Source: Candidatus Nomurabacteria bacterium (lineage in GTDB: Bacteria; Patescibacteriota; Saccharimonadia; JAGOAT01). Taken from it: DNA of 64,000 nt. The stretch covers positions 158,321 to 222,320 of the forward strand of contig JACKGM010000002.1 in the NCBI GenBank assembly GCA_020639315.1, given 5' to 3'. The position numbers were made by a program, and so were the translations under genes. The notes under the pieces are model-generated. The model was not told the DNA's origin. It was given only the letters and a program-made list of their open reading frames with translations, and did not search any database. Positions 4,109 through 61,296 of the stretch are shown here, one piece after another; positions within the stretch are counted from its first letter, which is position 1, and every line of letters starts with the position of its first letter.

Positions 4109-4587
4109 TGTCATCCTCCGAAACCCCGCCTCTCTCTTGTCATCCTCCGAAGTTCAGAGAACTTACGGGGGATCCAGTATTCGGCATTGTGCATTGTCAT
4201 CCTCCGAAACCCGTCCCTTGTCTTGTCATCCTCCGAAGTTCGGAGAACTTACGGGGGATCCAGTATTCTGGCATTGTGCATTGTCATCCTCCGAAACCCA
4301 GAGGGTTTACGGGGGATCCAGTGTTTAGTATTTCCTATGACCAACTCAAATACTGGATCTCCGGTATTTCCCCAAGGGGAAATCCGAAGATGACTGGAGG
4401 AAGAGGATTGTCATCCTCCGAAACTTTGTCCCTCTCCTGTCATCCTCCGAAGTTCGGAGAACTTACGGGGGATCCAGTATTCGGCATTGTGCATTGTCAT
4501 CCTCCGAAACCCAGAGGGTTTACGGGGGATCCAGTATCCCAGCATTTGCATCCGTCATACTCAGAGCTTGCTCTGGGTATCCAGAAA
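4109..4587. repeat. REP/BIME-like hairpin repeat cluster A (about 7 full units, 3 half units, 1 reverse unit)
   Basis: Repeated TGTCATCCTCCGAA-[stem-loop]-TTACGGGGGATCCAGTATT. Reverse unit at 4348-4394. Variant GTCATACTCAGAGCttgCTCTGGGTATCCAG at 4554. Lies between convergent genes. Confidence 0.9.
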
Positions 4588-5492: not shown

Positions 5493-5537
5493 TGTCATCC
5501 TCCGAAAATCCAAAGGATTTTACGGGGGATCCAGTAT
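5493..5537 (+). repeat. single REP-like hairpin unit (AATCC/GGATT stem)
   Basis: TGTCATCCTCCGAAAATCCaaaGGATTTTACGGGGGATCCAGTAT. A partial TTACGGGGG lies just upstream at 5475. Confidence 0.85.
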
Positions 5538-6517: not shown

Positions 6518-7705
6518 GTGGTGAGAAAAAATATCAATCTAATACTATCAATTATTATCATCTTGACTGCAAATTTAATCTGGCAGACCCAATCCTTTGC
6601 AATCTCACCGATCAGCAATATTGATTGTCAATTGCTGGATGCAACAAATTATCTCAGCACTCAGCAGTCTACTGCTACCGGAGAAATCACTGGATTTGGG
6701 GGCAATTCGGACTGGGCAAGTATCGGTTTAGTAACCGCTGGACTTGACCCAGCAAGCTTTAGCTACCAATCTAGCCCGACCATCGTTCAATACCTAGCTA
6801 GCAACCCCTTAGATCCTGCTAGCTCAGCTACCACGATCGAAAAGAGGATTTTAGCAATTAATGCACTCAGACAAGACCCTCAAAATTTTTATGGAATAAA
6901 CTATCTAGATCAATTACTTGGTAGCTATCAAGCCAATCAACTGGGCGATCCAACCCTGCTCAATGATGATATCTTTGGCATCATGGCACTGCTTGGCAGT
7001 AATCAGACTACACAAATAGCCCTATTGGATAGCCTCAATTACTTAGTAGATAACCAAGAGCCCGATGGAGGATTTGGCTATAGCTTATCAAGTGGTTCTG
7101 ATACCAATGATACCGCTTCAGCCCTGGTAGCCTTGATCAGTAGCCAGCGGGCTGGGTTGACTCATCCCAATCTAGATCAGGTCATAGCAGGCGCGATTAA
7201 TTATCTAATACCCAGTCAAAATCTAGATGGTGGCTTCGGCTATTTGCCAGGTGATCCTTCCGATGGGTCTTCTACTGCTTGGGGACTAATTGCACTCAAT
7301 GCAATTGGTACCATTCAGGATGTTCAAGCCTATCAAGGGTTAGCTAGCCAATGGCTGATTGACAACCAGCTGAGCGATGGAGGATTTGGCTACTTGGCTG
7401 AATATGGTTCTGACACCTATACTACCAGCCACGCACTAATAGCCTTGACTGGCAATACTTGGCTCAATCCACAATCAGATCAGTTGAGCTGCAACGATCA
7501 AGCTACTGATCCAGTCCAGTCAAACAGCCAAGATACCCCAGCTGATTCTTCCAATCAAACCACCCAAGCCGAGACCGGTACTGTGCAAGGATACACCCAA
7601 GTCACTAGTCTACCAAATACTGGAAGCTCAAATCTGGTGTCTTTAGTGATCGTCCTCATGCCTTTGACTGCAATCTTAAGAAAGATTACTCGTATAGCAA
7701 GTTAA
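6518..7705 (+). CDS. LPXTG-anchored surface protein with prenyltransferase/terpene-cyclase-like alpha-alpha toroid repeats
   Basis: Signal peptide. Four (D/P)DGGFGY repeats. C-terminal LPNTG plus a hydrophobic stretch and a basic tail. GTG start. The last 3 codons and the stop lie inside the MITE-A TIR. Confidence 0.7.
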   Translation: MVRKNINLILSIIIILTANLIWQTQSFAISPISNIDCQLLDATNYLSTQQSTATGEITGFGGNSDWASIGLVTAGLDPASFSYQSSPTIVQYLASNPLDPASSATTIEKRILAINALRQDPQNFYGINYLDQLLGSYQANQLGDPTLLNDDIFGIMALLGSNQTTQIALLDSLNYLVDNQEPDGGFGYSLSSGSDTNDTASALVALISSQRAGLTHPNLDQVIAGAINYLIPSQNLDGGFGYLPGDPSDGSSTAWGLIALNAIGTIQDVQAYQGLASQWLIDNQLSDGGFGYLAEYGSDTYTTSHALIALTGNTWLNPQSDQLSCNDQATDPVQSNSQDTPADSSNQTTQAETGTVQGYTQVTSLPNTGSSNLVSLVIVLMPLTAILRKITRIAS

Positions 7706-8020
7706 AAACAAAACCAGACTTTTGACCCAACTCTAGAGTAACCCTGTTGCCATATAAACTTGCGAGGTCAAAGCTGATGATTTTTATTCCAGAATAGCAA
7801 AACACGACAAAGCATAACAAGAGTTACGCTGCGAAGTGTTTTGCTAGTCTGGGGCAAAAATGGCAGTTTTGAAGCCGTGAGGTTATATGGCAACAGGGTT
7901 AGTTTATAAAGCTAGTTTTCTTACTCACCATATCTATGGATATGGCTCTTAAGAAGAACTACCTTTCTAGTTCTCTATAGTACAGCTCAAATTGTCTGGT
8001 TTTGGTTTGGGCTTGCTATA
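7693..8020 (+). mobile_element. MITE-A copy interrupted by a nested MITE-B
   Basis: MITE-A left part 7693-7739 and right part 7901-8020 are colinear with the intact copies. The insertion at 7740-7900 is flanked by AGT/AGT. Confidence 0.8.
7740..7900 (+). mobile_element. MITE-B copy (161 bp), long imperfect hairpin, ends AACCCTGTTGCCATATAA...TTATATGGCAACAGGGTT
   Basis: Near-identical to the copy at 17679-17840. 3-bp direct repeat AGT on both flanks. Confidence 0.8.
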
Positions 8021-8047: not shown

Positions 8048-8235
8048 TGTCATCCTCCGAAACCTGTCCCTTGCCCTGTCATCCTCCGAAACTGTCTCTG
8101 TATTGTCATCCTTCGAAGTTCCACCCCTCTTCTGTCATCCTCCGAAAATCCAAAGGATTTTACGGGGGATCCAGTATTTGACACTGAGTATTGTCATCCT
8201 CCGAAGTTCAGAGGACTTACGGGGGATCCAGTATT
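8048..8235 (+). repeat. REP-like cluster B (3 half units + 2 full units)
   Basis: Same invariant TGTCATCCTCCGAA and TTACGGGGGATCCAGTATT blocks. Confidence 0.9.
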
Positions 8236-9843: not shown

Positions 9844-9875
9844 ACTCGTTCAATCAGTTTTCTGGCACAATAATT

Positions 9876-10031
9876 AACCCTATTGTCATATAGCAAGTTA
9901 AAAACTGATGATTTTTATTCTAGAGTATCAAAACATGACAAAGCATAACAGGAGTTACGCTGCGAAGTGTTTTGCTAGTCTGGGGCAAAAATGGCAGTTT
10001 TGAAGCCGTGAGGTTATATGGCAACAGGGTT
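9876..10031 (+). mobile_element. MITE-B copy (156 bp) with an altered 5' arm
   Basis: The 3' two-thirds are near-identical to other copies. Flanked by ATT/ATT. The 5' arm carries TATAGCAAGTTAAAAAC, which resembles a MITE-A terminus. Confidence 0.7.
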
Positions 10032-12685: not shown

Positions 12686-12846
12686 GACCCTGATACTATA
12701 TAAACTTGTGAGGTCAAAATTGATGATTTTTATTCCAGGGTATCAGAACAGGACAAAGCATAATAGATATTATGTTGCGGAGTGTTTTGTTAGTCTGGGG
12801 CAAAAAAGGCAGTTTTGAAGCCGTGAGGTTATATAGCATCAGGGTC
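12686..12846 (+). mobile_element. MITE-B copy (161 bp), diverged
   Basis: Colinear with the other copies but with many substitutions. It fills the whole intergenic gap and contains both candidate start codons of the next gene. Confidence 0.7.
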
Positions 12847-14407: not shown

Positions 14408-14506
14408 GTCATCCCCCGAAACCCGTCCCTCTCTTGTCATCCTCCGAAACCCACCCCTCTCCTGTCATCCTCCGAAGTTCGAAGAACTTACGGGGGATCC
14501 AGTGTT
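14408..14506 (+). repeat. REP-like cluster C (2 half units + 1 full unit)
   Basis: GTCATCCCCCGAAACCC..., TGTCATCCTCCGAAACCC..., TGTCATCCTCCGAAGTTCgaaGAACTTACGGGGGATCCAGTGTT. Confidence 0.9.
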
Positions 14507-14518
14507 TCACAAACAAGT

Positions 14519-15591
14519 CCCATAGTTCCAATATCAAATGCAACCGTTAGAATAATACATACAATTAAACGAAAGGATTGCATGAGTCACCTAACGGCTG
14601 CAGAACGGGGTAAGATAGAAGTCTTACTCCAAGACAATTATACAAATAATCAAATAGCAAAGCGAATTGGTAAAGATAAATCTACTATAGGTAGAGAGAT
14701 CAAAAGAGGGCTTGATGGTAAAGGTATCTATCATACCTGGATAGCTCAATCTAGCTATGAAGAGAACCGACAAGAATCTAGACAGATACCAATCTTAGAT
14801 AACCCAGTTAATCATCGTTTACGCAGTCGAGTAGTAGACTGCCTACAGAAGGGCTGGAATCCAGTAACTATCTCAGGTAGATTAAAGAAAGAAGGACACC
14901 CATCAGTCTCTGCTGAAACTATCTATAACTGGATATATACTAGCTCTTGGGCTAAAGAGGAAAAGCTCTATCAATATCTTAGACAAGGCAAGAAAAAGAG
15001 AACCAAGAATCAAGGTAGGTCATCTCATAGGTCTAAGATACCAAATCGAGTATCTATCCATAAAAGACCAGAAGTTGTAAATCAAAGAACCAGACTAGGA
15101 GATTGGGAGGGTGATAGTGTCTTATACCTACATAAACAAGCTATTAACACTGTAAACGAGAGAATTAGTAGTTTAGTAGTATTTACTAAACTAGACCGTA
15201 AGACAGCAGAGGAGACAGCCAATGCAGTAATAGACGGGCTTAGAGGTCTTGTTGCCCATACCATCACCTTTGATAATGGTACTGAATTCACTAAACACGA
15301 GAGAATCACAGAAGCTATTGGTATAGAGGTATACTTTGCTGATCCATATAGCTCTTGGCAGAGAGGAGCTAACGAGAATATCAACGGACAACTTAGGGCG
15401 TATCTCCCTAAGCGTAGTGATATTAGGGGACTAACCCAACAAGAGCTAGATGATATAGCCTGGGAGCTTAATAACAAGCCTAGAAAAAGACTAGGGTGGC
15501 ATACACCTCAAGAGGTTTACGATTGGCTTGCTTCTAACCCTAATAGTGAGTTAGACTTAGCTAAGGTTGCATTTGGAAATAGAATCTAGGG
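14519..15591 (+). mobile_element. IS30-family insertion sequence, copy 1 (1073 bp)
   Basis: Reads as the same sequence as 25417-26489 by eye, and the sense and antisense ORF translations are identical. Imperfect terminal IRs CCCATAGTTCCAATATCAAATGCAACCGTTAG / CTAAGGTTGCATTTGGAAATAGAATCTAGGG. Confidence 0.9.
14582..15589 (+). CDS. IS30-family DDE transposase
   Basis: 335 aa. HTH N-terminus, DWEGD, DNGTEF and SWQRGANENINGQLRAYLPK motifs. Start taken from the identical copy 2; the ORF-track start at 14405 runs through REP repeats. Confidence 0.9.
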   Translation: MSHLTAAERGKIEVLLQDNYTNNQIAKRIGKDKSTIGREIKRGLDGKGIYHTWIAQSSYEENRQESRQIPILDNPVNHRLRSRVVDCLQKGWNPVTISGRLKKEGHPSVSAETIYNWIYTSSWAKEEKLYQYLRQGKKKRTKNQGRSSHRSKIPNRVSIHKRPEVVNQRTRLGDWEGDSVLYLHKQAINTVNERISSLVVFTKLDRKTAEETANAVIDGLRGLVAHTITFDNGTEFTKHERITEAIGIEVYFADPYSSWQRGANENINGQLRAYLPKRSDIRGLTQQELDDIAWELNNKPRKRLGWHTPQEVYDWLASNPNSELDLAKVAFGNRI

Positions 15592-16939: not shown

Positions 16940-17481
16940 CCAGACTAATCGTTGGGCTAGGCAATCCTGGTAAACAATATCAATTTAGCCGTCACAATCT
17001 GGGCTGGATGGTGCTTGATCAGCTTGCGACAGACCTAAACCTCCAATGGTCCACTCATAAATACAGCTTGACTAGCAAAAGCCCTGATCTTATTCTGGCC
17101 AAGCCCACTACTTATATGAACCTTAGTGGTCAGGCAGTCCAAAAACTTAAAGCCTTTTACAAGCTTGACAATCAGGCGATCACCATTGTCTATGATGACT
17201 ATGCTATAGACTTTGGTGATCTTAGGATCCGTCACTCCGGAAGTGATGCCGGACATAATGGCCTAAAATCCGTGATTCAAGCAATCGGAGAAGACTTTTG
17301 GCGCTACCGGATAGGGATTGGTCCCAAGCCTGAATATCAGCCGACTAGAGATTTTGTCCTGGCTAACTTTTCAGACAATGAAGTTTCCAGCTTGGGTTCA
17401 ATTATTCCAGCTACAGCGAAATACTTACTTGACACGGCTCAACCAGCCGATACTACCCTTCGAATACTGGATTTACCATAA
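16936..17481 (+). CDS. pth: peptidyl-tRNA hydrolase
   Basis: LIVGLGNPGKQYQFSRHNLGW...GHNGLKS. ATGA overlap with der. The last 6 codons and the stop lie in a REP-like unit. Confidence 0.95.
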   Translation: MTRLIVGLGNPGKQYQFSRHNLGWMVLDQLATDLNLQWSTHKYSLTSKSPDLILAKPTTYMNLSGQAVQKLKAFYKLDNQAITIVYDDYAIDFGDLRIRHSGSDAGHNGLKSVIQAIGEDFWRYRIGIGPKPEYQPTRDFVLANFSDNEVSSLGSIIPATAKYLLDTAQPADTTLRILDLP

Positions 17482-17678
17482 TTTCCTAGAGGAAATTTGG
17501 GAGATGACACGGAGAGGGAAGCGGAATTTTGGAAGATGACAGGAGGGCATTGTCATCCTCCGAAACCCGTCCCTTGTCTTGTCATCCTCCGAAACCCGTC
17601 CCTTGTCTTGTCATCCTCCGAAACCCGTCCCTTGTCTTGTCATCCTCCGAAACCCGAAGGGTTTACGGGGGATCCAGT
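17463..17678. repeat. REP-like cluster D (reverse full + reverse half, three perfect 29-bp half units, one full unit cut by MITE-B)
   Basis: AATACTGGATTTACC...GAGATGAC; ...GGAAGATGAC; 3x TGTCATCCTCCGAAACCCGTCCCTTGTCT (starts 17551, 17580, 17609); full unit from 17638. Confidence 0.9.
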
Positions 17679-17840
17679 AACCCTATTGCCATATAAACTT
17701 GCGAGGTCAAAGCTGATGATTTTTATTCCAGAATAGCAAAACACGACAAAGCATAACAGGAGTTACGCTGCGAAGTGTTTTGCTAGTCTGGGGCAAAAAA
17801 TGGCAGTTTTGAAGCCGTGAGGTTATATGGCAACAGGGTT
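17679..17840 (+). mobile_element. MITE-B copy (162 bp) inserted into the 3' end of a REP-like unit
   Basis: Flanks ...GGATCCAGT | element | AGTATTTATGG. Removing the element and one AGT restores the canonical GGATCCAGTATTT. Confidence 0.85.
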
Positions 17841-19322: not shown

Positions 19323-19461
19323 CATAGCAAGCTCAAAACAAAATCCAATTCCCTGACTAGGATAATAGGGAAACAGTAGTTGAGTTCTTCTACTGGACTC
19401 TAGTACCAGGTCAGGAATTGTGATCGATAGAAATGTCTGATTTTGTTTTTAACTTGCGATA
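19323..19461 (+). mobile_element. MITE-A-related element (shared termini, different core) inside the tRNA cluster
   Basis: Ends ATAGCAAGCTCAAAACAAAATC ... GATTTTGTTTTTAACTTGCGATA. Inner inverted repeat CAATTCCCTGACTAGG/CCAGGTCAGGAATTG. Confidence 0.6.
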
Positions 19462-19476
19462 ACTAAGAATGACTAT

Positions 19477-19654: not shown

Positions 19655-19730
19655 GGCGACTTAGCTCAGTTGGTAGAGCAGAGGCCTGAAGAGCCTTGTG
19701 TCGTAGGTTCGATTCCTACAGTCGCCACCA
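19655..19730 (+). tRNA. tRNA-Phe (GAA)
   Basis: GGCGACT/AGTCGCC acceptor, anticodon loop CTGAAGA, T loop TTCGATT, encoded CCA. Starts 1 nt after tRNA-Ala. Confidence 0.9.
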
Positions 19731-19773
19731 TTTTATAAGCATTGTAACTTCTTATCCTTAGTTCCCAAATTCA

Positions 19774-20201
19774 GATACTGGATCTCCCATAATTTCCTAA
19801 AGGAAATTTGGAAGATGACACGAAGAGGCCTTGTCATCCTCCGAAACCCGCCCCTTGCCCTGTCATCCTCCGAATCCTCGTAAGAGGATTACGGGGGATC
19901 CAGTATTAGTATTGTGTATTGCATTGCCATCCTCCGAAGTCCAAAGAACTTACGGGGGATCCAGTATCCCGTATTTGCATCCGTCATACTCAGAGCTTGC
20001 TCTGGGTATCCAGAAAACTAATAATAAACATAAAAACTAACTGTACTACCTAATCCATTATCTAGAGTTCTGGATCCCCAACTTTTCCTTCAAATGAAGG
20101 GCGGAAAAGTTGAGGATGACTCAATTCCTGTCATCCTCCGAAACCTGTCGCTTGTCCTGTCATCCTCCGAAACCCGGAGGGTTTACGGGGGATCCAGTAT
20201 T
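19774..20201. repeat. REP-like cluster E (two reverse+forward composites plus extra units)
   Basis: Reverse units 19774-19819 and 20067-20120. Forward half units at 19832 and 20129. Full units at 19861, 19924 and 20158. Variant unit at 19983. Confidence 0.9.
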
Positions 20202-20210
20202 CTACATTTA

Positions 20211-20372
20211 TAGACCCAACACCCTGACTTACCACTAAATTCCTGACCTCTCCTAGTACTAGCCATCTTTACTCCTTCTTCATATCAAAGGATATGACTC
20301 AGTCTTAAAGCAGACTATTACTTAGTCTAGGGTCTAGGAATTTATTGTGGCAAGACAAAGTGTTGGGTCATA
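20211..20372. mobile_element. MITE-C: 162-bp element with about 40-bp imperfect terminal inverted repeats
   Basis: TAGACCCAACACCCTGACTTACCACTAAATTCCTGACC ... GGTCTAGGAATTTATTGTGGCAAGACAAAGTGTTGGGTCATA. Single copy in the window. Confidence 0.55.
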
Positions 20373-20440: not shown

Positions 20441-21796
20441 ATGAATCCTAGCGACAATAGTTCAAAATCTAAATCAAAAAGAGGTATTTATCTAGTCCTT
20501 TTTATTATAATCTTTGGCTTGGCGGCTGCAGGGCTAATCTTGATGATCAAAGATGACAATCAGGATGCCAAAGTTGACTCTGAGCAAGTAGACGTCTCCC
20601 CAGATATAGCCAAGCTTGATACTCTCTGTCAGACCACACTCCCAAGACTTATTCAATGCCAAAATCTTCAAGCTGACCAGTTGACTACCTATCGACTTCC
20701 TGAAGATCTAGGTAATCCTTCGTATATTGCCCCCAGCCCTGATCAATCTAAGTTTATTGTGGAGCTCAAAGATAGCTCTGTCCTCGTCGATCAAGATTTC
20801 AATAAGATTGCAGATTTACCCCATCAGGAATCGAGCCAAACCTGGTGGACTGATTTAATATGGCTGGATTCAGATACGATTGTCTATAGTGCTTCAGCCC
20901 AAGATTCTACTGATACTGATTTTAATTCTCAGATATTCAATTATGACATTGCTAACGATCGAACAACTCAGATGACTTCTTACCAGGAAAGTTTGACCTA
21001 TGCCTACCCGAGTCAAGATGGTACTATGCTTTTTTCTAGAATCCAGAGACCAGAGCAAGCCGAGACGATTGCTGTAGTCAGCACTGACGGGACTGTCAAA
21101 GAGATTGGATCAATTTTGAGTACCGACAAAACCGAACTCTCAGGCACTGTCAATTATGATCGTAATTCTGATTTATTTTACCTAACACAAGCAGAATCCC
21201 AATCATCAATCCCACTCAAGCTCAAAAAGGATCTAGAGGGCAATTATCAACTCGAACAAACCAATGATCCAACCCTAGAGCAAATCTATCAAGGACCAAG
21301 TACTGAGCAAGGAATAGTAGTCCTAGCAAACGACTCAGATCAAAATAGTTCTGCGCAGTACCAAATAGTAGACGATCAGGGATCTATCAGGGATCTGCAA
21401 TTGGCGCAGGCAAGTAGCCAAGGCTACACCTATGGTCTACCTTTTGCAGTTAGCCAAAGTCTCAATCTTGAAACTATTGACGATAATGCGATCGATGCCA
21501 GTGACTACCTCTACTCCTATGTAGACTTACCAAATAATCTTAGTACTTACTTACTCGACCTGGTCAAACAAAACTGTTCTGAAGGAAGCTACAATAAAGT
21601 AGTTGTCAATAACCAACTAAATGACAATCAAGCTGTGGTAGAGTTTCAGGGTTGTAATGGTCAGGCTTACATTGGGTATTACAAGCTGGATGGTTCAGAT
21701 TTCAAGGCAGTGATCCAGACCCAGAACAATGTCAGCTGTGCCTCACTGGAAGAAAATGGTCTAAATCCTGAGCTGGTCGATAGCTGCACAGAGTAA
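20441..21796 (+). CDS. hypothetical membrane-anchored/secreted protein
   Basis: 451 aa with an N-terminal TM segment after a basic stretch. Ser/Asp/Gln-rich. No motif recognised. Confidence 0.5.
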   Translation: MNPSDNSSKSKSKRGIYLVLFIIIFGLAAAGLILMIKDDNQDAKVDSEQVDVSPDIAKLDTLCQTTLPRLIQCQNLQADQLTTYRLPEDLGNPSYIAPSPDQSKFIVELKDSSVLVDQDFNKIADLPHQESSQTWWTDLIWLDSDTIVYSASAQDSTDTDFNSQIFNYDIANDRTTQMTSYQESLTYAYPSQDGTMLFSRIQRPEQAETIAVVSTDGTVKEIGSILSTDKTELSGTVNYDRNSDLFYLTQAESQSSIPLKLKKDLEGNYQLEQTNDPTLEQIYQGPSTEQGIVVLANDSDQNSSAQYQIVDDQGSIRDLQLAQASSQGYTYGLPFAVSQSLNLETIDDNAIDASDYLYSYVDLPNNLSTYLLDLVKQNCSEGSYNKVVVNNQLNDNQAVVEFQGCNGQAYIGYYKLDGSDFKAVIQTQNNVSCASLEENGLNPELVDSCTE

Positions 21797-24174: not shown

Positions 24175-24629
24175 GACCTAATAACTGCCTAGCTCGATCA
24201 GTCTTACTATTATCACTCCTCCCTGCAAGCGGTACGCAGTCTTCCCCTGAGTTTCTCAACATCTCCACATTTTGGACATCCCAACAGGTTAAGGTAACTG
24301 TTTTTCATAGCACTATCCCATATACTAGTAGTATTGGATTTATTCGTAAGGTTAAAACAAAGAGTGGTGCTATAGCTGTTCAGGTAGTCATGATTCAATA
24401 TTGTATTAACCCTTGTCATTAATCTTTAGGGGAGTTATTGAGACTAGTTGTGTATTTGGGGTTTAAATCTAGAAAGCATATCTCAGACAGATGTAAATAA
24501 TATATTCGGATCAAAATCAGTAGATGGTGAAAGTACTCTAGGATTCTCACTATATTGATTGATCATACAGCACACCCAAACCAAGACCGGACACTATGAG
24601 ACTTCTAATAAACAGCTAGAAAAACCAGA

Positions 24630-24683
24630 TTGATAGACTCTAGAGTTGAGTCAAAAGTCTGGTTTTGTTTTGAGCTTTCTATA
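24630..24683 (-). mobile_element. truncated MITE-A (left end only, reverse orientation)
   Basis: ...TTGATAGACTCTAGAGTTGAGTCAAAAGTCTGGTTTTGTTTTGAGCTTTCTATA. Confidence 0.65.
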
Positions 24684-25416: not shown

Positions 25417-26489
25417 CCCATAGTTCCAATATCAAATGCAACCGTTAGAATAATACATACAATTAAACGAAAGGATTGCATGAGTCACCTAACGGCTGCA
25501 GAACGGGGTAAGATAGAAGTCTTACTCCAAGACAATTATACAAATAATCAAATAGCAAAGCGAATTGGTAAAGATAAATCTACTATAGGTAGAGAGATCA
25601 AAAGAGGGCTTGATGGTAAAGGTATCTATCATACCTGGATAGCTCAATCTAGCTATGAAGAGAACCGACAAGAATCTAGACAGATACCAATCTTAGATAA
25701 CCCAGTTAATCATCGTTTACGCAGTCGAGTAGTAGACTGCCTACAGAAGGGCTGGAATCCAGTAACTATCTCAGGTAGATTAAAGAAAGAAGGACACCCA
25801 TCAGTCTCTGCTGAAACTATCTATAACTGGATATATACTAGCTCTTGGGCTAAAGAGGAAAAGCTCTATCAATATCTTAGACAAGGCAAGAAAAAGAGAA
25901 CCAAGAATCAAGGTAGGTCATCTCATAGGTCTAAGATACCAAATCGAGTATCTATCCATAAAAGACCAGAAGTTGTAAATCAAAGAACCAGACTAGGAGA
26001 TTGGGAGGGTGATAGTGTCTTATACCTACATAAACAAGCTATTAACACTGTAAACGAGAGAATTAGTAGTTTAGTAGTATTTACTAAACTAGACCGTAAG
26101 ACAGCAGAGGAGACAGCCAATGCAGTAATAGACGGGCTTAGAGGTCTTGTTGCCCATACCATCACCTTTGATAATGGTACTGAATTCACTAAACACGAGA
26201 GAATCACAGAAGCTATTGGTATAGAGGTATACTTTGCTGATCCATATAGCTCTTGGCAGAGAGGAGCTAACGAGAATATCAACGGACAACTTAGGGCGTA
26301 TCTCCCTAAGCGTAGTGATATTAGGGGACTAACCCAACAAGAGCTAGATGATATAGCCTGGGAGCTTAATAACAAGCCTAGAAAAAGACTAGGGTGGCAT
26401 ACACCTCAAGAGGTTTACGATTGGCTTGCTTCTAACCCTAATAGTGAGTTAGACTTAGCTAAGGTTGCATTTGGAAATAGAATCTAGGG
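25417..26489 (+). mobile_element. IS30-family insertion sequence, copy 2 (1073 bp)
   Basis: Same sequence as copy 1 as far as read by eye, in the same orientation. Confidence 0.9.
25480..26487 (+). CDS. IS30-family DDE transposase
   Basis: The 335-aa translation is identical to copy 1. Confidence 0.9.
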   Translation: MSHLTAAERGKIEVLLQDNYTNNQIAKRIGKDKSTIGREIKRGLDGKGIYHTWIAQSSYEENRQESRQIPILDNPVNHRLRSRVVDCLQKGWNPVTISGRLKKEGHPSVSAETIYNWIYTSSWAKEEKLYQYLRQGKKKRTKNQGRSSHRSKIPNRVSIHKRPEVVNQRTRLGDWEGDSVLYLHKQAINTVNERISSLVVFTKLDRKTAEETANAVIDGLRGLVAHTITFDNGTEFTKHERITEAIGIEVYFADPYSSWQRGANENINGQLRAYLPKRSDIRGLTQQELDDIAWELNNKPRKRLGWHTPQEVYDWLASNPNSELDLAKVAFGNRI

Positions 26490-29501: not shown

Positions 29502-29574
29502 ATAGACCTCATTATACCAAAATTCCCAAAAAGCACCACACTCACCACTATCCCCCCAAAAACCCTCTCCCCAA

Positions 29575-29641
29575 TTTCAAGGGGTGCCCTTGAAATCACC
29601 CATTCCAACAGATCAAAATTAGCAAGGGGTGCCCTTGAAAA
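29575..29641 (+). repeat. palindromic doublet (REP type 2) upstream of the RAYT gene
   Basis: TTTCAAGGGgtgCCCTTGAAA - 26 nt - GCAAGGGgtgCCCTTGAAAA. Confidence 0.85.
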
Positions 29642-29746
29642 GGACAAAAAACAAACTGGTTCTGCTTGTCAAAATGTACTTAATTAAGCTACAATACTAC
29701 CAACAGATATTTTTAACTATCCTTAATTAACTACTACTATAAAATT

Positions 29747-30400
29747 ATGCCGAGCCCCAATACGGTTAGAATCTTTTGCTCAGACTCCAGTTTTCATATA
29801 TATTGCCGAGGGAATAGAAAACTACCTATATTTTTCAGCGCACAAGAATATGAAAAATTTATGTCTATTTTACTTTTTCTATTAACCCCAAAAGCAAAAG
29901 TAGCAGATAATCTTAAGATATTTTCCAAACCTAGACTAGCTAGTCAAGATTTTAGCCAAGCTATCCATTTAGTTGCATTTACCTTAATGCCTAATCATTA
30001 CCATCTCGTTATTCATGCTAAAGAATCTTCTTTGGTACCAGGGTTTATGCAAAGACTAAATCAAAAATTTACACATTTAATCAATACCAATCATAACTTT
30101 GTAGGACATCTATTCCAAAGTCAGTACAAATCAAGATTGATAAACTCCGAGCTAGATTTGGTCAATACAACTGCCTATGTCCATCTCAACTCAAATGAAC
30201 TAATGCGAACCAACACTGAATATTATAAAGAATACCCCTATAACAGTTTAGCAACTACTCACCCAGTGTCAGCCGTGGTTGACCAGAGTTTGCTTTTCAC
30301 TAAATCTGGCTTTAGTAGGGAAGACTATAATAAATATTTAGATATAAAATCAAAGAATTTTCTAGAGATGCAATTTATGAAAAAATTAATGTCTAGTTGA
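29747..30400 (+). CDS. IS200-like Y1 (HUH) transposase, REP-associated tyrosine transposase (RAYT)-like
   Basis: HUH motif MPNHYHLVI, GHLFQSQYKSRLI and TTAYVHLN are typical of the Y1_Tnp/RAYT family. Flanked by matching palindromic doublets. Confidence 0.8.
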   Translation: MPSPNTVRIFCSDSSFHIYCRGNRKLPIFFSAQEYEKFMSILLFLLTPKAKVADNLKIFSKPRLASQDFSQAIHLVAFTLMPNHYHLVIHAKESSLVPGFMQRLNQKFTHLINTNHNFVGHLFQSQYKSRLINSELDLVNTTAYVHLNSNELMRTNTEYYKEYPYNSLATTHPVSAVVDQSLLFTKSGFSREDYNKYLDIKSKNFLEMQFMKKLMSS

Positions 30401-30430
30401 CACTCAAGAGGTCTTTTGTGTTTCATCCTT

Positions 30431-30496
30431 TTTCAAGGGGTGCCCTTGAAATTACTCATCCCAACAGATCAAAATTAGCAAGGGGTGCCCTTGAAA
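30431..30496 (+). repeat. palindromic doublet (REP type 2) downstream of the RAYT gene
   Basis: Same architecture and orientation as 29575-29641. Confidence 0.85.
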
Positions 30497-30523
30497 TCAT
30501 CAATCTTACTGTTGGACTGAAGT

Positions 30524-30687
30524 TATAGCAAGTTAAAAACAAAACCAGACTTTTGACCCAACTCTAGAGTCTATCAAGCTAGTTTTCTTACTCACCATAT
30601 CTATGGATATGGCTCTTAAGAAGAACTACCTTTATAGTTCTCTATAATACAGCTCAAATTGTCTGGTTTTGTTTTGAGCTTGCTATA
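30524..30687 (+). mobile_element. MITE-A copy (164 bp)
   Basis: Full-length copy with both TIRs. Confidence 0.8.
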
Positions 30688-33529: not shown

Positions 33530-33583
33530 TATCTATAATCCTATAGTTAATCTCTGATTTTTGCAATCCAAACCGCCACTTGA

Positions 33584-33650
33584 TTTCAAGGGGTGCCCTT
33601 GAAATCACCTACCCCAACAGATCAAAACTAGCAAGGGGTGCCCTTGAAAA
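33584..33650 (+). repeat. palindromic doublet (REP type 2), third copy
   Basis: TTTCAAGGGgtgCCCTTGAAA ... GCAAGGGgtgCCCTTGAAAA, in the divergent pyrB/receiver intergenic region. Confidence 0.85.
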
Positions 33651-47007: not shown

Positions 47008-47391
47008 TGTCATCCTCCGAATCCCGCCCTCTCCTGTCATCCTCCGAATCCTGACCCTTGTCCTGTCATCCTCCGAAAATCCAAAGGATTTTACGGGGGA
47101 TCCAGTATTTCTGCATTTCTGGGATTCAATTCAAATACTGGATCTCCGGTATTCCCCTCCGGGTAATCCGAAGATGACAAGAGGGAGCATTGTCATCCTC
47201 CGAATCCTGACCCTTGTCCTGTCATCCTCCGAAAATCCAAAGGATTTTACGGGGGAACCAGTATTTCTGCATTTCTGGGATTCAATTCAAATACTGGATC
47301 TCCGGTATTCCCCTCCGGGTAATCCGAAGATGACAAGAAGGGCATTATCATCCTCCGAATCCTCGCATGAGGATTACGAGGTAATCAGTAT
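47008..47391. repeat. REP-like cluster F, including a 155-156 bp tandem duplication
   Basis: Half units at 47008, 47035 and 47191. Full units at 47064 and 47219. Reverse units around 47133 and 47289. Degenerate unit at 47345. Confidence 0.9.
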
Positions 47392-52293: not shown

Positions 52294-52308
52294 AACCACA
52301 GCTTAGAT

Positions 52309-52472
52309 TATAGCAAGTTAAAAACAAAATCAGACTTTTGACCCAACTCTAGAGTCTATAAAGCTAGTTTTCTTACTCACCATATCTATGGATATGGCTC
52401 TTAAGAAGAACTACCTTTCTAGTTCTCTATAGTACAGCTCAAATTGTCCGGTTTTGTTTTGAGCTTGCTATA
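52309..52472 (+). mobile_element. MITE-A copy (164 bp)
   Basis: Full-length copy with both TIRs, between rluA-like and tRNA-Thr. Confidence 0.8.
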
Positions 52473-54016: not shown

Positions 54017-54135
54017 TATAGCATACCCCAAACAAAACTGGACAATTTGGGACTACTAATAAAGAGTTGGAAAATACTAACTTTGTAGCCTTTAGTAGTG
54101 AGTCAAAAGGCTGGTTTTGTTTGGGGTATGCTATA
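54017..54135 (+). mobile_element. MITE-A-related element (119 bp) with covarying termini
   Basis: TATAGCATACCCCAAACAAAACTGGAC ... GGCTGGTTTTGTTTGGGGTATGCTATA. Confidence 0.6.
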
Positions 54136-57419: not shown

Positions 57420-58547
57420 GTGTACAAATTGACCAAACCTTTGATTTTTATTGCTGGAGTTGTCCTAGGTATCAGTCTTGCCTACTTCAATCTACCTTTG
57501 ACCCACCAGTCTTCGGAAGTCAGCCCAGCGACCGAGCAAGAATTTCAACCGATTTTTGAGACTTTATCACTAATCCAGGACAAATATGCCAGAGATTATG
57601 ATATTAGTGAGCTAATTGACTCAGCCAACAAAGGCTTAGTAGCTGGTCTTGGAGATGACTTCAGCTACCAGCTCAATGCCGAAGAGTTTTCTCAGCTTGA
57701 GGCTAGCCTCAATAGTACTTTTAGTGGTGTGGGTATTCGCCTTGATCAAGTAGAGGGCAAAACTTTTGTCGTCACACCGATCAAAGACTCTCCAGCCCTA
57801 GCAGCTGGGATCAAGCCAGGTGATCAGATTGTCAAAGTCGATGACGAGGATATCACAGATCAACCATTAGACCTAATTATTAGCAAGATCACTGGACCTG
57901 TTGATAGCTATGTCACACTTAGTCTTATTAGAGGCGAGGAACCCTTGCAGTTTGAAATTCAACGCAAAGAAATCGTTGCACCCTCGACTAACCTCGAATA
58001 CAAAGATGGAGTAGCGGTCCTCGATATCGACCAATTTGCTCGCAATACCGCTAATGAAGTATCTAGCTATTTAGCTGAACCCGAGTTGCAATCCAGCAAG
58101 GAACTGATTATTGATCTCAGGGATAACCCTGGAGGCTACTTGGATAGCGTAGTTGAAATAGCTGATTACTTCCTAGACTCTGGTGTTATTTACTCCCAAA
58201 AAGGCAAACAATCCGAACACTCTGAATCAGCGGACAAAGAGACCATGGTGCCGACCGATCTTCAGATCGTAGTACTGATTGACGATCACAGTGCCTCAGC
58301 TGCCGAGATCCTGGCAGGAGCGCTCAAGGATAACCATCGTGCCACCCTGATTGGACAAAAGACATATGGGAAGGGAAGTGTCCAGGAGCTGATCGACGTC
58401 GACGATGACAACTACCTGAGGCTAACTACGGCTCTTTGGTATACTCCTGATGGCGTCAATATCGACCACGAAGGCATTAGCCCAGATACTACCCTGGAAT
58501 CAGATCAAGATAGCCTAGAATATGCCCTAAGTCATTTAGATGACTGA
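57420..58547 (+). CDS. S41 carboxyl-terminal processing protease with PDZ domain
   Basis: PDZ (GIKPGDQIVKVDD), DLRDNPGGYL, SASAAEILAGALKD. GTG start. Confidence 0.85.
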   Translation: MYKLTKPLIFIAGVVLGISLAYFNLPLTHQSSEVSPATEQEFQPIFETLSLIQDKYARDYDISELIDSANKGLVAGLGDDFSYQLNAEEFSQLEASLNSTFSGVGIRLDQVEGKTFVVTPIKDSPALAAGIKPGDQIVKVDDEDITDQPLDLIISKITGPVDSYVTLSLIRGEEPLQFEIQRKEIVAPSTNLEYKDGVAVLDIDQFARNTANEVSSYLAEPELQSSKELIIDLRDNPGGYLDSVVEIADYFLDSGVIYSQKGKQSEHSESADKETMVPTDLQIVVLIDDHSASAAEILAGALKDNHRATLIGQKTYGKGSVQELIDVDDDNYLRLTTALWYTPDGVNIDHEGISPDTTLESDQDSLEYALSHLDD

Positions 58548-61296
58548 ACAAATCTTAGATAGAGAATATCCTAGTCCCATTAGACCCAATGCCAGCTATT
58601 TGGGTATGTATAGTTTGGCTCCTAATAATCCGCCATTATCTAGCTCAGATGCTCTCGAGGAAGAATATCTATCAATAATCAGAAACCTATATACAAAGAT
58701 TGCTAAATACCTCCAAAAGTTACCTGGCACTCTTCTATCTATCCTCAATAACACCGAAGTGGATGAAAGACTGAAACTAAAAGCAATTGGACAGATAGGA
58801 GTCTTGCCAGAGCATGAGAGATTGGAGCTATTTGAGGCTATTAGTAATACTATTTTGTCTATCCTCAATAACCCCGAAGGGAATAAATGGCTGAAACTAG
58901 AAGCGATTGGACAGATAGGGGTCTTGCCAGAGCATGAGAGATTGGAAATTGTTGTGTCTATCCTCGATAACACCGAAGGGTATGAATGGCTGAAACTAAA
59001 AGCAATTGGACAGATAGGGGTCTTGCCAGAGCATGAGAGATTGGAGCTATTTGAGGCTATTAGTAATACTATTTTGTCTATCCTCAATAACCCCGAAGTG
59101 TATGAAAGGCTGAAACTAGAAGCGATTGGACAGATAGGGGTCTTGCCAGAGCATGAGAGATTGAAAATTGTTTTGTCTATCCTCAATAACCCCGAAGTGG
59201 ATGAAAGGCTGAAACTAGAAGCGATTGGACAGATAGGGGTCTTGCCAGAGCATGAGAGATTGAAAATTGTTTTGTCTATCCTCAATAACCCCGAAGTGGA
59301 TGAAAGGCTGAAGCTAGAAGCGATTGGACAGATAGGGGTCTTGCCAGAGCATGAGAGATTGAAAATTGTTTTGTCTATCCTCAATAACCCCGAAGGGAAT
59401 AAATGGCTGAAACTAAAAGCAATTGGACAGATAGGGGTCTTGCCAGAGCGTGAGAGATTGGAAATTGTTTTGTCTATCCTCAATAACACCGAAGGGTATG
59501 AAAGGCTGAAACTAAAAGCAATTGGACAGATAGGGGTCTTGCCAGAGCGTGAGAGATTGGAGCTATTTGAGGATATTAGTAATACTATTTTGTCTATCCT
59601 CAATAACCCCGAAGGGAATGAATGGCTAAAACTAGAAGCGATTGGACAGATAGGGGTCTTGCCAGAGCATGAGAGATTGAAAATTGTTTTGTCTATCCTC
59701 AATAACCCCGAAGTGGATGAAAGGCTGAAACTAAAAGCAATTGGACAGATAGGGGTCTTGTCAGGGCATGAGAGATTGGAGCTATTTGAGGCTATTAGTA
59801 ATACTATTTTGTCTATCCTCAATAACCCCGAAGGGAATGAATGGCTAAAACTAGAAGCGATTGGACAGATAGGGGTCTTGCCAGAGCATGAGAGATTGAA
59901 AATTGTTGTGTCTATCCTCAATAACCCCGAAGTGGATGAAAGGCTGAAACTAAAAGCAATTGGGCAGATAGGGGTCTTGCCAGAGCATGAGAGATTGGAG
60001 CTATTTGAGGCTATTAGTAATACTATTTTGTCTATCCTCAATAACCCCGAAGTGTATGAAAGGCTGAAACTAGAAGCGATTGGACAGATAGGGGTCTTGC
60101 CAGAGCGTGAGAGACTGGAGCTATTTGAGGATATTAGTAATACTATTTTGTCTATCCTCAATAACCCCGAAGTGGATGAAAGGCTGAAACTAGAAGCGAT
60201 TGGACAGATAGGGGTCTTGCCAGAGCATGAGAGATTGAAAATTGTTTTGTCTATCCTCGATAACCCCGAAGTGAATGAAAGGCTGAAACTAGAAGCGATT
60301 GGACAGATAGGGGTCTTGTCAGGGCATGAGAGATTGGAGCTATTTGAGGCTATTAGTAATACTATTTTGTCTATCCTCAATAACCCCGAAGTGGATGAAA
60401 GGCTGAAACTAGAAGCGATTGGACAGATAGGGGTCTTGCCAGAGCATGAGAGATTGAAAATTGTTTTGTCTATCCTTAATAACCCCGAAGTGGATGAATG
60501 GCTGAAACTAGAAGCGATTGGACAGATAGGGGTCTTGCCAGAGCATGAGAGATTGGAAATTGTTTTGTCTATCCTCAATAACCCCGAAGGGAATAAATGG
60601 CTGAAACTAGAAGCGATTGGACAGATAGGGGTCTTGCCAGAGCATGAGAGATTGGAAATTGTTTTGTCTATCCTTAATAACCCCGAAGTGGATGAAAGGC
60701 TGAAACTAGAAGCAATTGGACAGATAGGGGTCTTGCCAGAGCATGAGAGATTGGAGCTAACGCGTATAGCCACCCCATTATTGCTTTCGTCACCACTTCA
60801 TAAATCAACTCACCCCGAAAAATTTACTGAATTTAAAAAATCTGGATCTACTACCATGATCCATCCTGGTAGTTCTGAAGCTTCCACTAGGATAATCACA
60901 GTCTCATCTTTTCTAGAGTGGCTAGAAGCCTATACAATGGCATATCAATGGCAAGAAGCAGGTTTCGATTATGTGCCAGTCGAACCAATTGCTAATTTTT
61001 CTGAAAGCCCAGAAAACCCTCTAGAAGTCCAAGTAACTACCCACAACCTCAGAGGTCGCGCCTTGCCTGAAAGTGCACTAGTACTGTATTCTCAGCAAAT
61101 TAGAGATAAAGTTACCTCTGATGTAAAACTAATTATAGATATACTGATCCGGGCAGGGATTGATCACGGTCATCCGCATGAGAGAAACTTTGTCCTAGTA
61201 CCCATCCTAGATCAAGAAGGCAAAATTGACCTAAAAATACCTCCTAGGATATATATAATCGACTTCGATCAAGCTACCCCAATAGTTAAATCTTAG
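58540..61296 (+). CDS. 918-aa protein: 19 near-identical HEAT-like 33/41-aa repeats + degenerate kinase-like C-terminal domain
   Basis: Unit LSILNNPE-xxxx-LKL(E/K)AIGQIGVLPEHERL(KIV | ELFEAISNTI). C-terminus has IDHGHPHERNFVL and IYIIDFDQA. 8-nt overlap with the protease gene. Confidence 0.7.
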   Translation: MTEQILDREYPSPIRPNASYLGMYSLAPNNPPLSSSDALEEEYLSIIRNLYTKIAKYLQKLPGTLLSILNNTEVDERLKLKAIGQIGVLPEHERLELFEAISNTILSILNNPEGNKWLKLEAIGQIGVLPEHERLEIVVSILDNTEGYEWLKLKAIGQIGVLPEHERLELFEAISNTILSILNNPEVYERLKLEAIGQIGVLPEHERLKIVLSILNNPEVDERLKLEAIGQIGVLPEHERLKIVLSILNNPEVDERLKLEAIGQIGVLPEHERLKIVLSILNNPEGNKWLKLKAIGQIGVLPERERLEIVLSILNNTEGYERLKLKAIGQIGVLPERERLELFEDISNTILSILNNPEGNEWLKLEAIGQIGVLPEHERLKIVLSILNNPEVDERLKLKAIGQIGVLSGHERLELFEAISNTILSILNNPEGNEWLKLEAIGQIGVLPEHERLKIVVSILNNPEVDERLKLKAIGQIGVLPEHERLELFEAISNTILSILNNPEVYERLKLEAIGQIGVLPERERLELFEDISNTILSILNNPEVDERLKLEAIGQIGVLPEHERLKIVLSILDNPEVNERLKLEAIGQIGVLSGHERLELFEAISNTILSILNNPEVDERLKLEAIGQIGVLPEHERLKIVLSILNNPEVDEWLKLEAIGQIGVLPEHERLEIVLSILNNPEGNKWLKLEAIGQIGVLPEHERLEIVLSILNNPEVDERLKLEAIGQIGVLPEHERLELTRIATPLLLSSPLHKSTHPEKFTEFKKSGSTTMIHPGSSEASTRIITVSSFLEWLEAYTMAYQWQEAGFDYVPVEPIANFSESPENPLEVQVTTHNLRGRALPESALVLYSQQIRDKVTSDVKLIIDILIRAGIDHGHPHERNFVLVPILDQEGKIDLKIPPRIYIIDFDQATPIVKS

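Follow-up and report, generated by a model that had tools for sequence, protein, structure and literature searches.

Clustered two-tier hairpin repeats in a Saccharibacteria chromosome and their probable kinship with Ssn-related motifs

The DNA stretch considered here, a window of 64 kb, is ordinary chromosome encoding Der, Pth, IF-2, LigA, GatABC, ribosomal proteins and eight tRNA genes, with nearly all of its genes on the + strand. Its host is a member of the Saccharibacteria, bacteria with tiny genomes that depend on DNA uptake, and the open reading frame (ORF) at 20441-21796 encodes a protein identical to a hypothetical one from Candidatus Saccharibacteria. Our subject is the region 19774-20201 of this window, which comprises eight elements of one repeat family, namely hairpin-forming units and hemi-units, the latter possessing a 5' arm and a pyrimidine-rich spacer without the 3' arm. 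GC content and richness in repeats had initially suggested the small dispersed repeats of cyanobacteria (Elhai 2008), an assignment that was rejected because the host belongs to the Saccharibacteria. In order of position, the eight elements are:

19775-19819, (-) strand: full unit with basal stem ATCTTCCA/TGGGAGAT, apical stem AAATTTCC/GGAAATT, a T:G at pair 5 and a bulged A
19833-19861, (+) strand: hemi-unit with the 5' arm GTCATCCTCCGAAACCC and a pyrimidine-rich spacer, lacking the 3' arm and abutting the full unit downstream
19862-19906, (+) strand: full unit with basal stem ATCCTCCG/CGGGGGAT, apical stem AATCCTC/GAGGATT, a GTAA loop and a bulged A (DNA fold of -13.1 kcal/mol, z -5.4)
19926-19967, (+) strand: full unit with the tag variant GCC and apical stem GTCC/GAAC with one C:A mismatch
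19983-20016, (+) strand: short one-tier unit, CGTC-ATACTCAGAG-CTTG-CTCTGGGTAT-CCAG, with T:G at pair 5 and no bulge
20067-20120, (-) strand: long unit with basal stem ATCCTCAAC/GTTGGGGAT, apical stem TTTTCC/GGAAAA, a 14-nt loop and T:G at pair 5
20130-20158, (+) strand: hemi-unit, 5' arm only, immediately 5' of a full unit
20159-20200, (+) strand: full unit with basal stem ATCCTCCG/CGGGGGAT, apical stem AAACCC/GGGTTT and a bulged A

Across the window, 24 full hairpin units (18 on the + strand, 6 on the - strand) and 17 hemi-units are gathered in seven intergenic clusters, which together occupy ~1.8 kb or 2.9% of the sequence. A full unit reads, from 5' to 3', as a tag (T/C)GTC, an 8-bp basal stem, an apical stem, a bulged A, the basal 3' arm and a tail CCAG(TAT). 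The commonest basal stem is ATCCTCCG paired with CGGGGGAT, while the apical stem is variable (6-8 bp, with a loop of 3-4 nt and one unpaired A on the 3' side), and the two tiers add up to a stem of 14-15 bp. The tag (T/C)GTC-AT runs through the 24 full units with two variants (one GCC, one ATC), and the 3' tail ATCCAG is present in nearly all of them, its C, A and G being invariant in an alignment of 21 units. The abundance of the repeats is far from random: GTCATCCTCCGAA, allowing up to 2 mismatches, occurs 34 times in the window against 1.25 expected, and GGGGATCCAGTAT occurs 20 times against 1.37 expected, neither count being equalled by any shuffle. The clusters are copies of a composite module of ~250 nt, consisting of a (-) unit, a hemi-unit, two (+) units and a unit of the ATAC type; equivalent slots in different copies of the module hold apical stems that differ yet still pair. 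Head-to-head pairs of a (-) and a (+) unit occur at 4350/4439, 19775/19862 and 47135/47221.

The covariation of these hairpins in the window is real and statistically robust. In the alignment of the 21 window units (17 distinct rows) on the two-tier structure, standard pairs fill 96.7% of the cells versus 84.2% in shuffles, and double-sided, i.e. compensatory, changes are present at 8 of the 15 pairs. The covariation score is 0.386 versus 0.141 in shuffles, with none of 500 shuffles equalling the real score, and controls in which the register was slid remain at 60% paired or less. Independent events are, however, fewer than the number of units suggests, because the clusters are copies of one composite module. 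The basal stem varies as well: five types occur in the window (ATCCTCCG, ATCTTCGG, ATCTTCCA, ATACTCAG and ATCCTCAA), which differ by compensatory double changes at positions 3, 4, 7 and 8 and have T:G at position 5 in every case, and a sixth type, ATATTCCA/TGGGATAT, on a related metagenome contig (L075) retains both the T:G and the bulged A.

At basal pair 5, 16 of the 17 distinct rows have U:G, the exception being a degenerate copy that overlaps the end of pth, and a scan of the window in which position 5 was left free returned T:G in all 14 unique units (29 of 29 matches). Similarly, none of the 21 two-tier units lacks the bulged A; it is missing from the two ATACTCAGAG units and from the unit at 20067-20120. 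These irregularities have a strand. Among the matches listed, 104 unique units contain 81 G:T pairs and one A:C, and in those units that were not forced by the search pattern the count is 13 G:T to one A:C. In DNA folds, a continuous stem forms on the tagged strand only, which carries G·T and the bulged A; the complement carries A·C, which interrupts the stem, and a bulged T, and its fold is ~1 kcal/mol poorer.

These observations bear on the original prediction, made from the letters alone, which held that the central stem varies by paired substitutions, that the outer stem differs between subfamilies but keeps a T opposite a G at its fifth position, that this T:G appears only when a unit is read in its own direction, and that most units retain an unpaired A in the 3' arm. 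Every central stem that it had named lies within 1-2 nt of where it was placed, and the covariation, the subfamilies, the strandedness and the unpaired A were all recovered. The claim that the T:G is invariant holds for the window and fails beyond it: among the matches listed, position 5 of 36 unique unforced units outside the lineage is a Watson-Crick pair in 25, T:G in 10 and T:T in one. Position 5 nevertheless holds 10 of the 13 G:T pairs of the unforced set, against a single A:C anywhere among the matches listed, and is therefore better described as a recurrent strand-specific hot spot for T:G than as an invariant feature of the superfamily. In this lineage the T:G is fixed; across the superfamily it alternates with C:G and T:A.

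The units are by no means confined to this genome. An exact-pattern scan, with one genome per species, for the 11-nt and 12-nt halves GTCATCCTCCG…CGGGGGATCCAG recovered the exact T:G basal stem at no fewer than 70 loci in many phyla. The hosts among the matches listed include Brevundimonas, other Caulobacterales, Bradyrhizobium, Hyphomicrobium and Undibacterium; further hosts there are Nitrospirota including Thermodesulfovibrio, Elusimicrobia, Omnitrophota and Desulfobacteraceae, and a metagenome-assembled genome (MAG) of the Patescibacteria carries the stem in many copies. Hosts that share the T:G basal stem have wholly unlike apical parts, and the flanks of these loci contain further units with other basal stems in which the frame GTC-AT…AT-CCA is kept, one of them, ATTCCCGCG…CGCGGGAAT, being the dRS3/NTS stem of Neisseria. 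Half of the 48 unique ATCCTCCG-type units from other phyla among the matches listed (24) possess, under DNA parameters, a basal stem of 9-10 bp, a single 3' bulged A and an apical stem, the bulged A having formed no part of the search pattern. No match to the T:G-type unit was obtained in viral contigs, and a metagenome scan for the lineage-specific form yielded two short contigs, too few for a genome-wide covariation test.

Two comparisons with closer relatives concern individual loci. In one relative, with only 69% identity in the orthologous protein, the contig begins within a unit that lies ~125 nt 5' of the orthologous gene, and the retained part of this unit is identical to the window unit 17639-17680. 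In the Patescibacteria MAG, units likewise border the Band_7 orthologue (62% identity), and these belong to a different basal-stem family. As a whole, the comparison divides the proposal that selection acts on hairpin shape and not on sequence: it describes the apical stem well, but the tags and most of the basal stem are conserved in sequence, identically across phyla.

The element belongs to a published class, and what is new is the host phylum and the elongated two-tier architecture. Specifically, we put at roughly 0.7 the probability that the units are Ssn-related motifs (SRM), that is NTS-like members of the CGTC/TGTC-tagged superfamily of repetitive extragenic palindromes (REP), residing in a Saccharibacteria chromosome and operating by the mechanism of the Ssn nucleases. 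SsnA is a single-domain GIY-YIG nuclease (cd10448) of 94 aa, which binds its motif solely as single-stranded DNA (ssDNA) of the tagged strand, and not as double-stranded DNA, RNA or the reverse strand, and which makes its cut 5' of the motif, at a distance of a few nt (Chenal et al. 2025, Nat Commun 16:2388, PMC11893778). According to the same study, the 3 nt before the palindrome weigh most for cleavage and the C after it most for binding, and mutagenesis indicated that sequence counts besides structure; the loop can be dispensed with, and in vitro the enzyme tolerates extensions in its place, whether paired or unpaired, and still cuts a hairpin split over two oligonucleotides as well as concatemers produced by rolling-circle amplification (PMC11893778). 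The ends of the published SRM consensus, HGTCWY…RNCYNB (PMC11893778), are both fitted by the full-unit frame (T/C)GTC-AT…AT-CCAG, and the conserved unpaired positions of the units are those that proved important in the Ssn mutagenesis. The dispensable loop and the tolerance for extensions fit the free apical stems, and since the consensus has, as we read it, Y Y in the 5' arm facing R G in the 3' arm, a T or C opposite G is already implicit in it. The main text of the Ssn paper makes no mention of tandem arrays, bulges or wobble pairs (PMC11893778).

Genes of the expected kind accompany the same stem type in other genomes. Six of the 70 loci among the matches listed carry a GIY-YIG gene of 100-113 aa with invariant Y7, Y18 and E65, the spacing of which equals that of the published catalytic residues Y6, Y17 and E64; only distant UPF0213 GIY-YIG structures match in the PDB. 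At four of the 70 (L015, L018, L019 and L035) T:G-type units lie within ~310 nt of the Ssn-like gene, with units on both sides of it in the Undibacterium locus (L019), while the nearest unit is ~730 nt away in L070 and ~1.5 kb away in L048, where the gene is frameshifted. For the T:G stem type, this placement reproduces the published association, in which ssn genes are typically flanked by motifs (PMC11893778). The only recurrent neighbour proteins in the 70 loci among the matches listed are this Ssn-like GIY-YIG cluster and an unrelated cluster of SDR dehydrogenases.

Several observations weigh against the assignment to a working Ssn system. Six-frame hidden Markov model searches at maximum sensitivity detected neither an Ssn-type GIY-YIG ORF nor one of the type found in the candidate phyla radiation (CPR) in the 64-kb window or in the ~9 kb past its right end, a segment that contains no units either. 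In the related Patescibacteria MAG (L054), the single GIY-YIG gene observed is of another subfamily, which sits after tRNA or tmRNA genes with different hairpins of its own. Of the SRM-rich genomes in the published survey, ~19% are without ssn (PMC11893778). Finally, the full SRM pattern, HGTCWYN(0-2)YYVSBRHN(0-5)WNVSBRGN(0-2)RNCYNB, finds nothing in the window (0 matches, where shuffles average 0.27), since it admits an interior of 23 nt at most and that of the units measures 20-40 nt; short ATCCTCCG-type units of other phyla, checked by hand, do fit it.

The CPR-type GIY-YIG protein of 85 aa was considered as a partner and rejected: four homologues (nine loci) adjoin the 3' ends of tRNA or tmRNA genes with different hairpins, and no GTCAT units flank the gene there. 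As an observation in its own right, a GIY-YIG gene of 85-88 aa is common in Patescibacteria, just 3' of a tRNA or tmRNA wherever one was detected (L054 2046-2535; L079-L087 around the gene, with only a remnant of a tRNA 3' end in L082), and carries on its 5' side conserved hairpin motifs of its own, CCACGTAAAA-stem-TTTTACGTG, CCCCGTG…TTTACGGGG and CACGTGGC. This gene with its hairpins looks like a distinct element that targets tRNA 3' ends.

The absence of an ssn gene from the 73 kb searched leads to a different explanation, namely that the units are orphan or relic SRM whose nuclease was lost or never present, and which would persist as palindromes, selfish or neutral, that template switching and gene conversion homogenise. 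The ssn-less share of SRM-rich genomes just cited would accommodate it, as would the derivation of the clusters from one composite module. We consider it unlikely all the same, as the unit of the 69%-identical relative is unchanged over its retained part, as the T:G and the bulge survive in at least six basal-stem types although correction by template switching would be expected to erase both, and as the sequence searched covers ~7% of a ~1-Mb genome.

An action at the level of RNA is quite improbable; the units would then stabilise transcripts at the 3' end, mark processing sites or terminate transcription, and their G·U wobble would be functional. Most units do lie downstream of co-oriented genes in sense orientation, G·U pairs are standard in RNA, CUUG or GNRA-like loops occur in some units, and transcription of the REP was the view favoured by Di Nocera et al. 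(2013, BMC Genomics 14:522, PMC3733652). Against this, 6 of the 24 full units run opposite to the + strand genes around them, so that an RNA made there would have A·C at the pair in question; a U-tract is missing; the tags GTC and CCAG, conserved and unpaired, coincide exactly with the determinants of Ssn; and SsnA does not bind RNA. Nor did Rfam 15, searched at the gathering threshold and at E <= 10 for a known RNA family, return anything relevant: above threshold the window contains only the tRNAs and a cobalamin riboswitch, and within 19730-20260 the best scores reach at most 17 bits against cut-offs of 48-90.

A mobilisation of the units by the Y1 HUH transposase of the window, in the manner of REP-RAYT or IS200/IS605 systems, is very remote, for although a Y1_Tnp/RAYT-like gene is present at 29747-30400 (below the NCBIfam cut-off) and bulged imperfect hairpins are typical HUH substrates (PMC6006769), that gene is flanked on both sides by a different double-hairpin repeat, TTTCAAGGG-GTG-CCCTTGAAA, and not by GTCAT units, no transposase gene flanks the head-to-head unit pairs, the units have the tag GTC and neither a GTAG nor a GTGG guide, in the study of Di Nocera et al. 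no Y1 gene had CGTC repeats beside it (PMC3733652), and none of the 70 unit-bearing loci among the matches listed has a Y1 homologue.

The original prediction had offered two alternatives for the conserved mismatch and bulge, an RNA with a functional G:U and an ssDNA hairpin recognised by a structure-specific enzyme. It is essentially the second that stands, at the level of the element family, with the amendment that the enzyme family it proposed, HUH, gives way to GIY-YIG (cd10448), the Y1/RAYT-like gene of the window being flanked by an unrelated hairpin repeat.

If the units are Ssn-related motifs, their mode of action may be pictured by homology with Neisseria and Wolbachia. The tagged strand would fold into a hairpin when the DNA is single-stranded, for instance during replication, during repair or in incoming transforming DNA. 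A small single-domain GIY-YIG Ssn nuclease (cd10448) would then dock on the foot of the hairpin, made up of the unpaired GTC tag, the first pairs A-T and T-A, the basal stem and the C of the CCAG tail, and would nick upstream of it. The apical stem and the loop would go unread by the enzyme and would therefore be free to drift under the constraint that folding is kept, which would produce the covariation. As for the T·G at pair 5 and the bulged A of the 3' arm, they would be strand-specific traits of a cross-phylum SRM subfamily, the ATCCTCCG/CGGGGGAT type, keeping the tagged strand paired and leaving an A·C mismatch on the complement; in such a scheme they would be recognition determinants and not merely tolerated. 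By the same analogy, we infer that this genome would encode a cognate Ssn and that the units would be cleaved. The biological role is probably the control of ssDNA recombination or transformation, as suggested by Neisseria, in which the Ssn system modulates natural transformation. In the present chromosome dprA (DNA processing protein A) lies beside topA (L088 11135-11989), and a key ssDNA-processing component of natural transformation is thus encoded nearby, ~9 kb past the right end of the window.

The hemi-units may add a further layer to such a system. Of those in the window, 16 on the (+) strand form 10 arrays with a period of 27-29 nt, each ending in one complete hairpin, and the same arrangement is present in Undibacterium, Marinimicrobium and the Patescibacteria MAG. 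As SsnA cleaves split substrates and concatemers in vitro, the hemi-unit arrays could be cleavable. It is a speculative and rather doubtful proposal that hemi-units are more than debris, representing either natural split substrates or footprints of an SRM-copying mechanism, in a system that could gate recombining ssDNA. If they act as split substrates, alternative 5' arms may compete for one 3' arm and so set several registers of Ssn cleavage. Were this to hold, the system could, in a competent, host-dependent Saccharibacteria genome with ~3% of its sequence in such units, gate which incoming ssDNA recombines.

Besides the region 19774-20201, the window contains the following clusters:

4110-4587, mixed strands (cluster A): flanked by genes that converge on it; of its full units, those at 4139, 4225, 4283, 4439 and 4496 are (+) and the one at 4350-4394 is (-), and hemi-units at 4110, 4196 and 4410 and an ATAC-type unit at 4554-4587 accompany them
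5494-5537, (+) strand (cluster B): one full unit with apical stem AAAATCC/GGATTTT, 5' of the cobalamin riboswitch
8049-8234, (+) strand (cluster C): hemi-units at 8049, 8078 and 8105, then full units at 8134-8177 and 8193-8234
14408-14505, (+) strand (cluster D): hemi-units at 14408 and 14436, then a full unit at 14464-14505; directly after the stop codon of a peptidase S11 gene and 13 nt ahead of an IS30-like element
17464-17680, mixed strands (cluster E): pth overlaps at its 3' end with a degenerate (-) unit (17464-17508); next come a (-) hemi-unit near 17516-17540, three (+) hemi-units of 29 nt at 17552, 17581 and 17610 that are identical to one another, and a full unit at 17639-17680
47009-47391, mixed strands (cluster G): 5' of tRNA-Tyr; its full units are (+) at 47065 and 47221 and (-) at 47135-47178 and 47291-47334, accompanied by hemi-units at 47009, 47036 and 47192 and a degenerate unit at 47347-47391

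Unit clusters interrupt the short-read assemblies of this lineage. The contigs L001-L004, L077 and L078, assembled from short reads of this organism and a relative, terminate near the cluster at 19775-20200 or its counterpart, and both L077 and L078 begin within a unit, which fits assembly breakage at a high-copy repeat.

The window is rich in other repeats and elements as well. The ORF of the Y1_Tnp/RAYT-like gene has the HUH motif HYH and the Y motif AYVHLNSNE, and the repeat of 68 nt on both sides of it (29574-30497), with its two hairpins of the TTTCAAGGG-GTG-CCCTTGAAA type, recurs at 33583-33650 and at the end of contig L088; together, the ORF and its repeats form a REPtron-like arrangement that is separate from the GTCAT units. 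The IS30-like element, ~1.07 kb long and with an ORF containing an HTH_38 domain, is present in two near-identical copies (14519-15591 and 25417-26489), the first of which starts 13 nt past the unit 14464-14505. A palindromic element of ~160 nt resembling miniature inverted-repeat transposable elements, with ends TAACCCTGTTGCCATATAAAC…, occurs at 7741-7899, 9872-10030, 12687-12845 and 17680-17838; the copy at 17680 and the tail of a unit meet at a TA, and the element is also found near a unit in a metagenome contig (L076). A dispersed repeat of 60-165 nt (…TTGTCTGGTTTTGTTTTGAGCTTGCTATA…) is located mostly just 5' of genes or tRNAs (2050-2214, 7693-8020, 19431-19464 on the - strand, 24620-24683, 30523-30687, 52308-52472 and 54072-54135) and might act as a common promoter module that includes an extended -10 box. 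Finally, ~20 tandem coding repeats of 99 or 120 nt occupy 58729-60738 within an ORF of 918 aa (58540-61296).

The units extend the class of ssDNA nuclease recognition sites described in 2025 to the candidate phyla radiation. They also provide two candidate specificity features common to several phyla, the T·G wobble at basal pair 5 and the single 3' bulged A. Since the published pattern misses the elongated two-tier forms, surveys probably undercount SRM.

Among known systems, the hairpins of REP/REPIN-RAYT and IS200/IS605 elements share with the present units the irregularities of ssDNA hairpins, an adjacent unpaired tetranucleotide, mosaic clusters resembling bacterial interspersed mosaic elements (BIME) and, by analogy, the reading of one strand by a small nuclease; they differ in the tag, which is GTC here and not GTAG, and in the enzyme fold, which would be GIY-YIG and not HUH. 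The CGTC-tagged REP, which include dRS3 of Neisseria and RPE-4 and RPE-6 of Rickettsia and for which neither a dedicated transposase nor a Y1 gene between CGTC repeats was found (Di Nocera et al. 2013, PMC3733652), are closer. They resemble our units in the CGTC/TGTC tag, the first pairs A-T and T-A, the CCA tail, the head-to-head dimers, the siting between unidirectional or convergent genes and the lack of an adjacent transposase. Their published stems measure 8-9 bp with loops of 4-5 nt, whereas here an 8-bp basal stem is followed by an apical stem of 6-8 bp with a bulge, and only the two ATACTCAGAG units (10 bp, CTTG loop) come near that size; their hosts are listed from five phyla, none of them CPR, and clusters, which are rare among them, are the rule here. 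Relative to the NTS/SRM with SsnA (PMC11893778), the window is distinguished by the two-tier stem of 14-15 bp, the 3' bulged A, the fixed T·G and the hemi-unit arrays, by a Saccharibacteria (CPR) host, a group without mention in the main text of that paper, and by the lack of an ssn gene within the 64-kb window and the adjoining 9 kb. The likeness to this last class is nonetheless the most extensive, as it takes in the unpaired HGTC tag, the A-T/T-A opening and the ATCCAG tail, the intergenic clusters, the strand-specific features and the free loop or apical part, and as an identical basal stem adjoins Ssn-like genes in other genomes.

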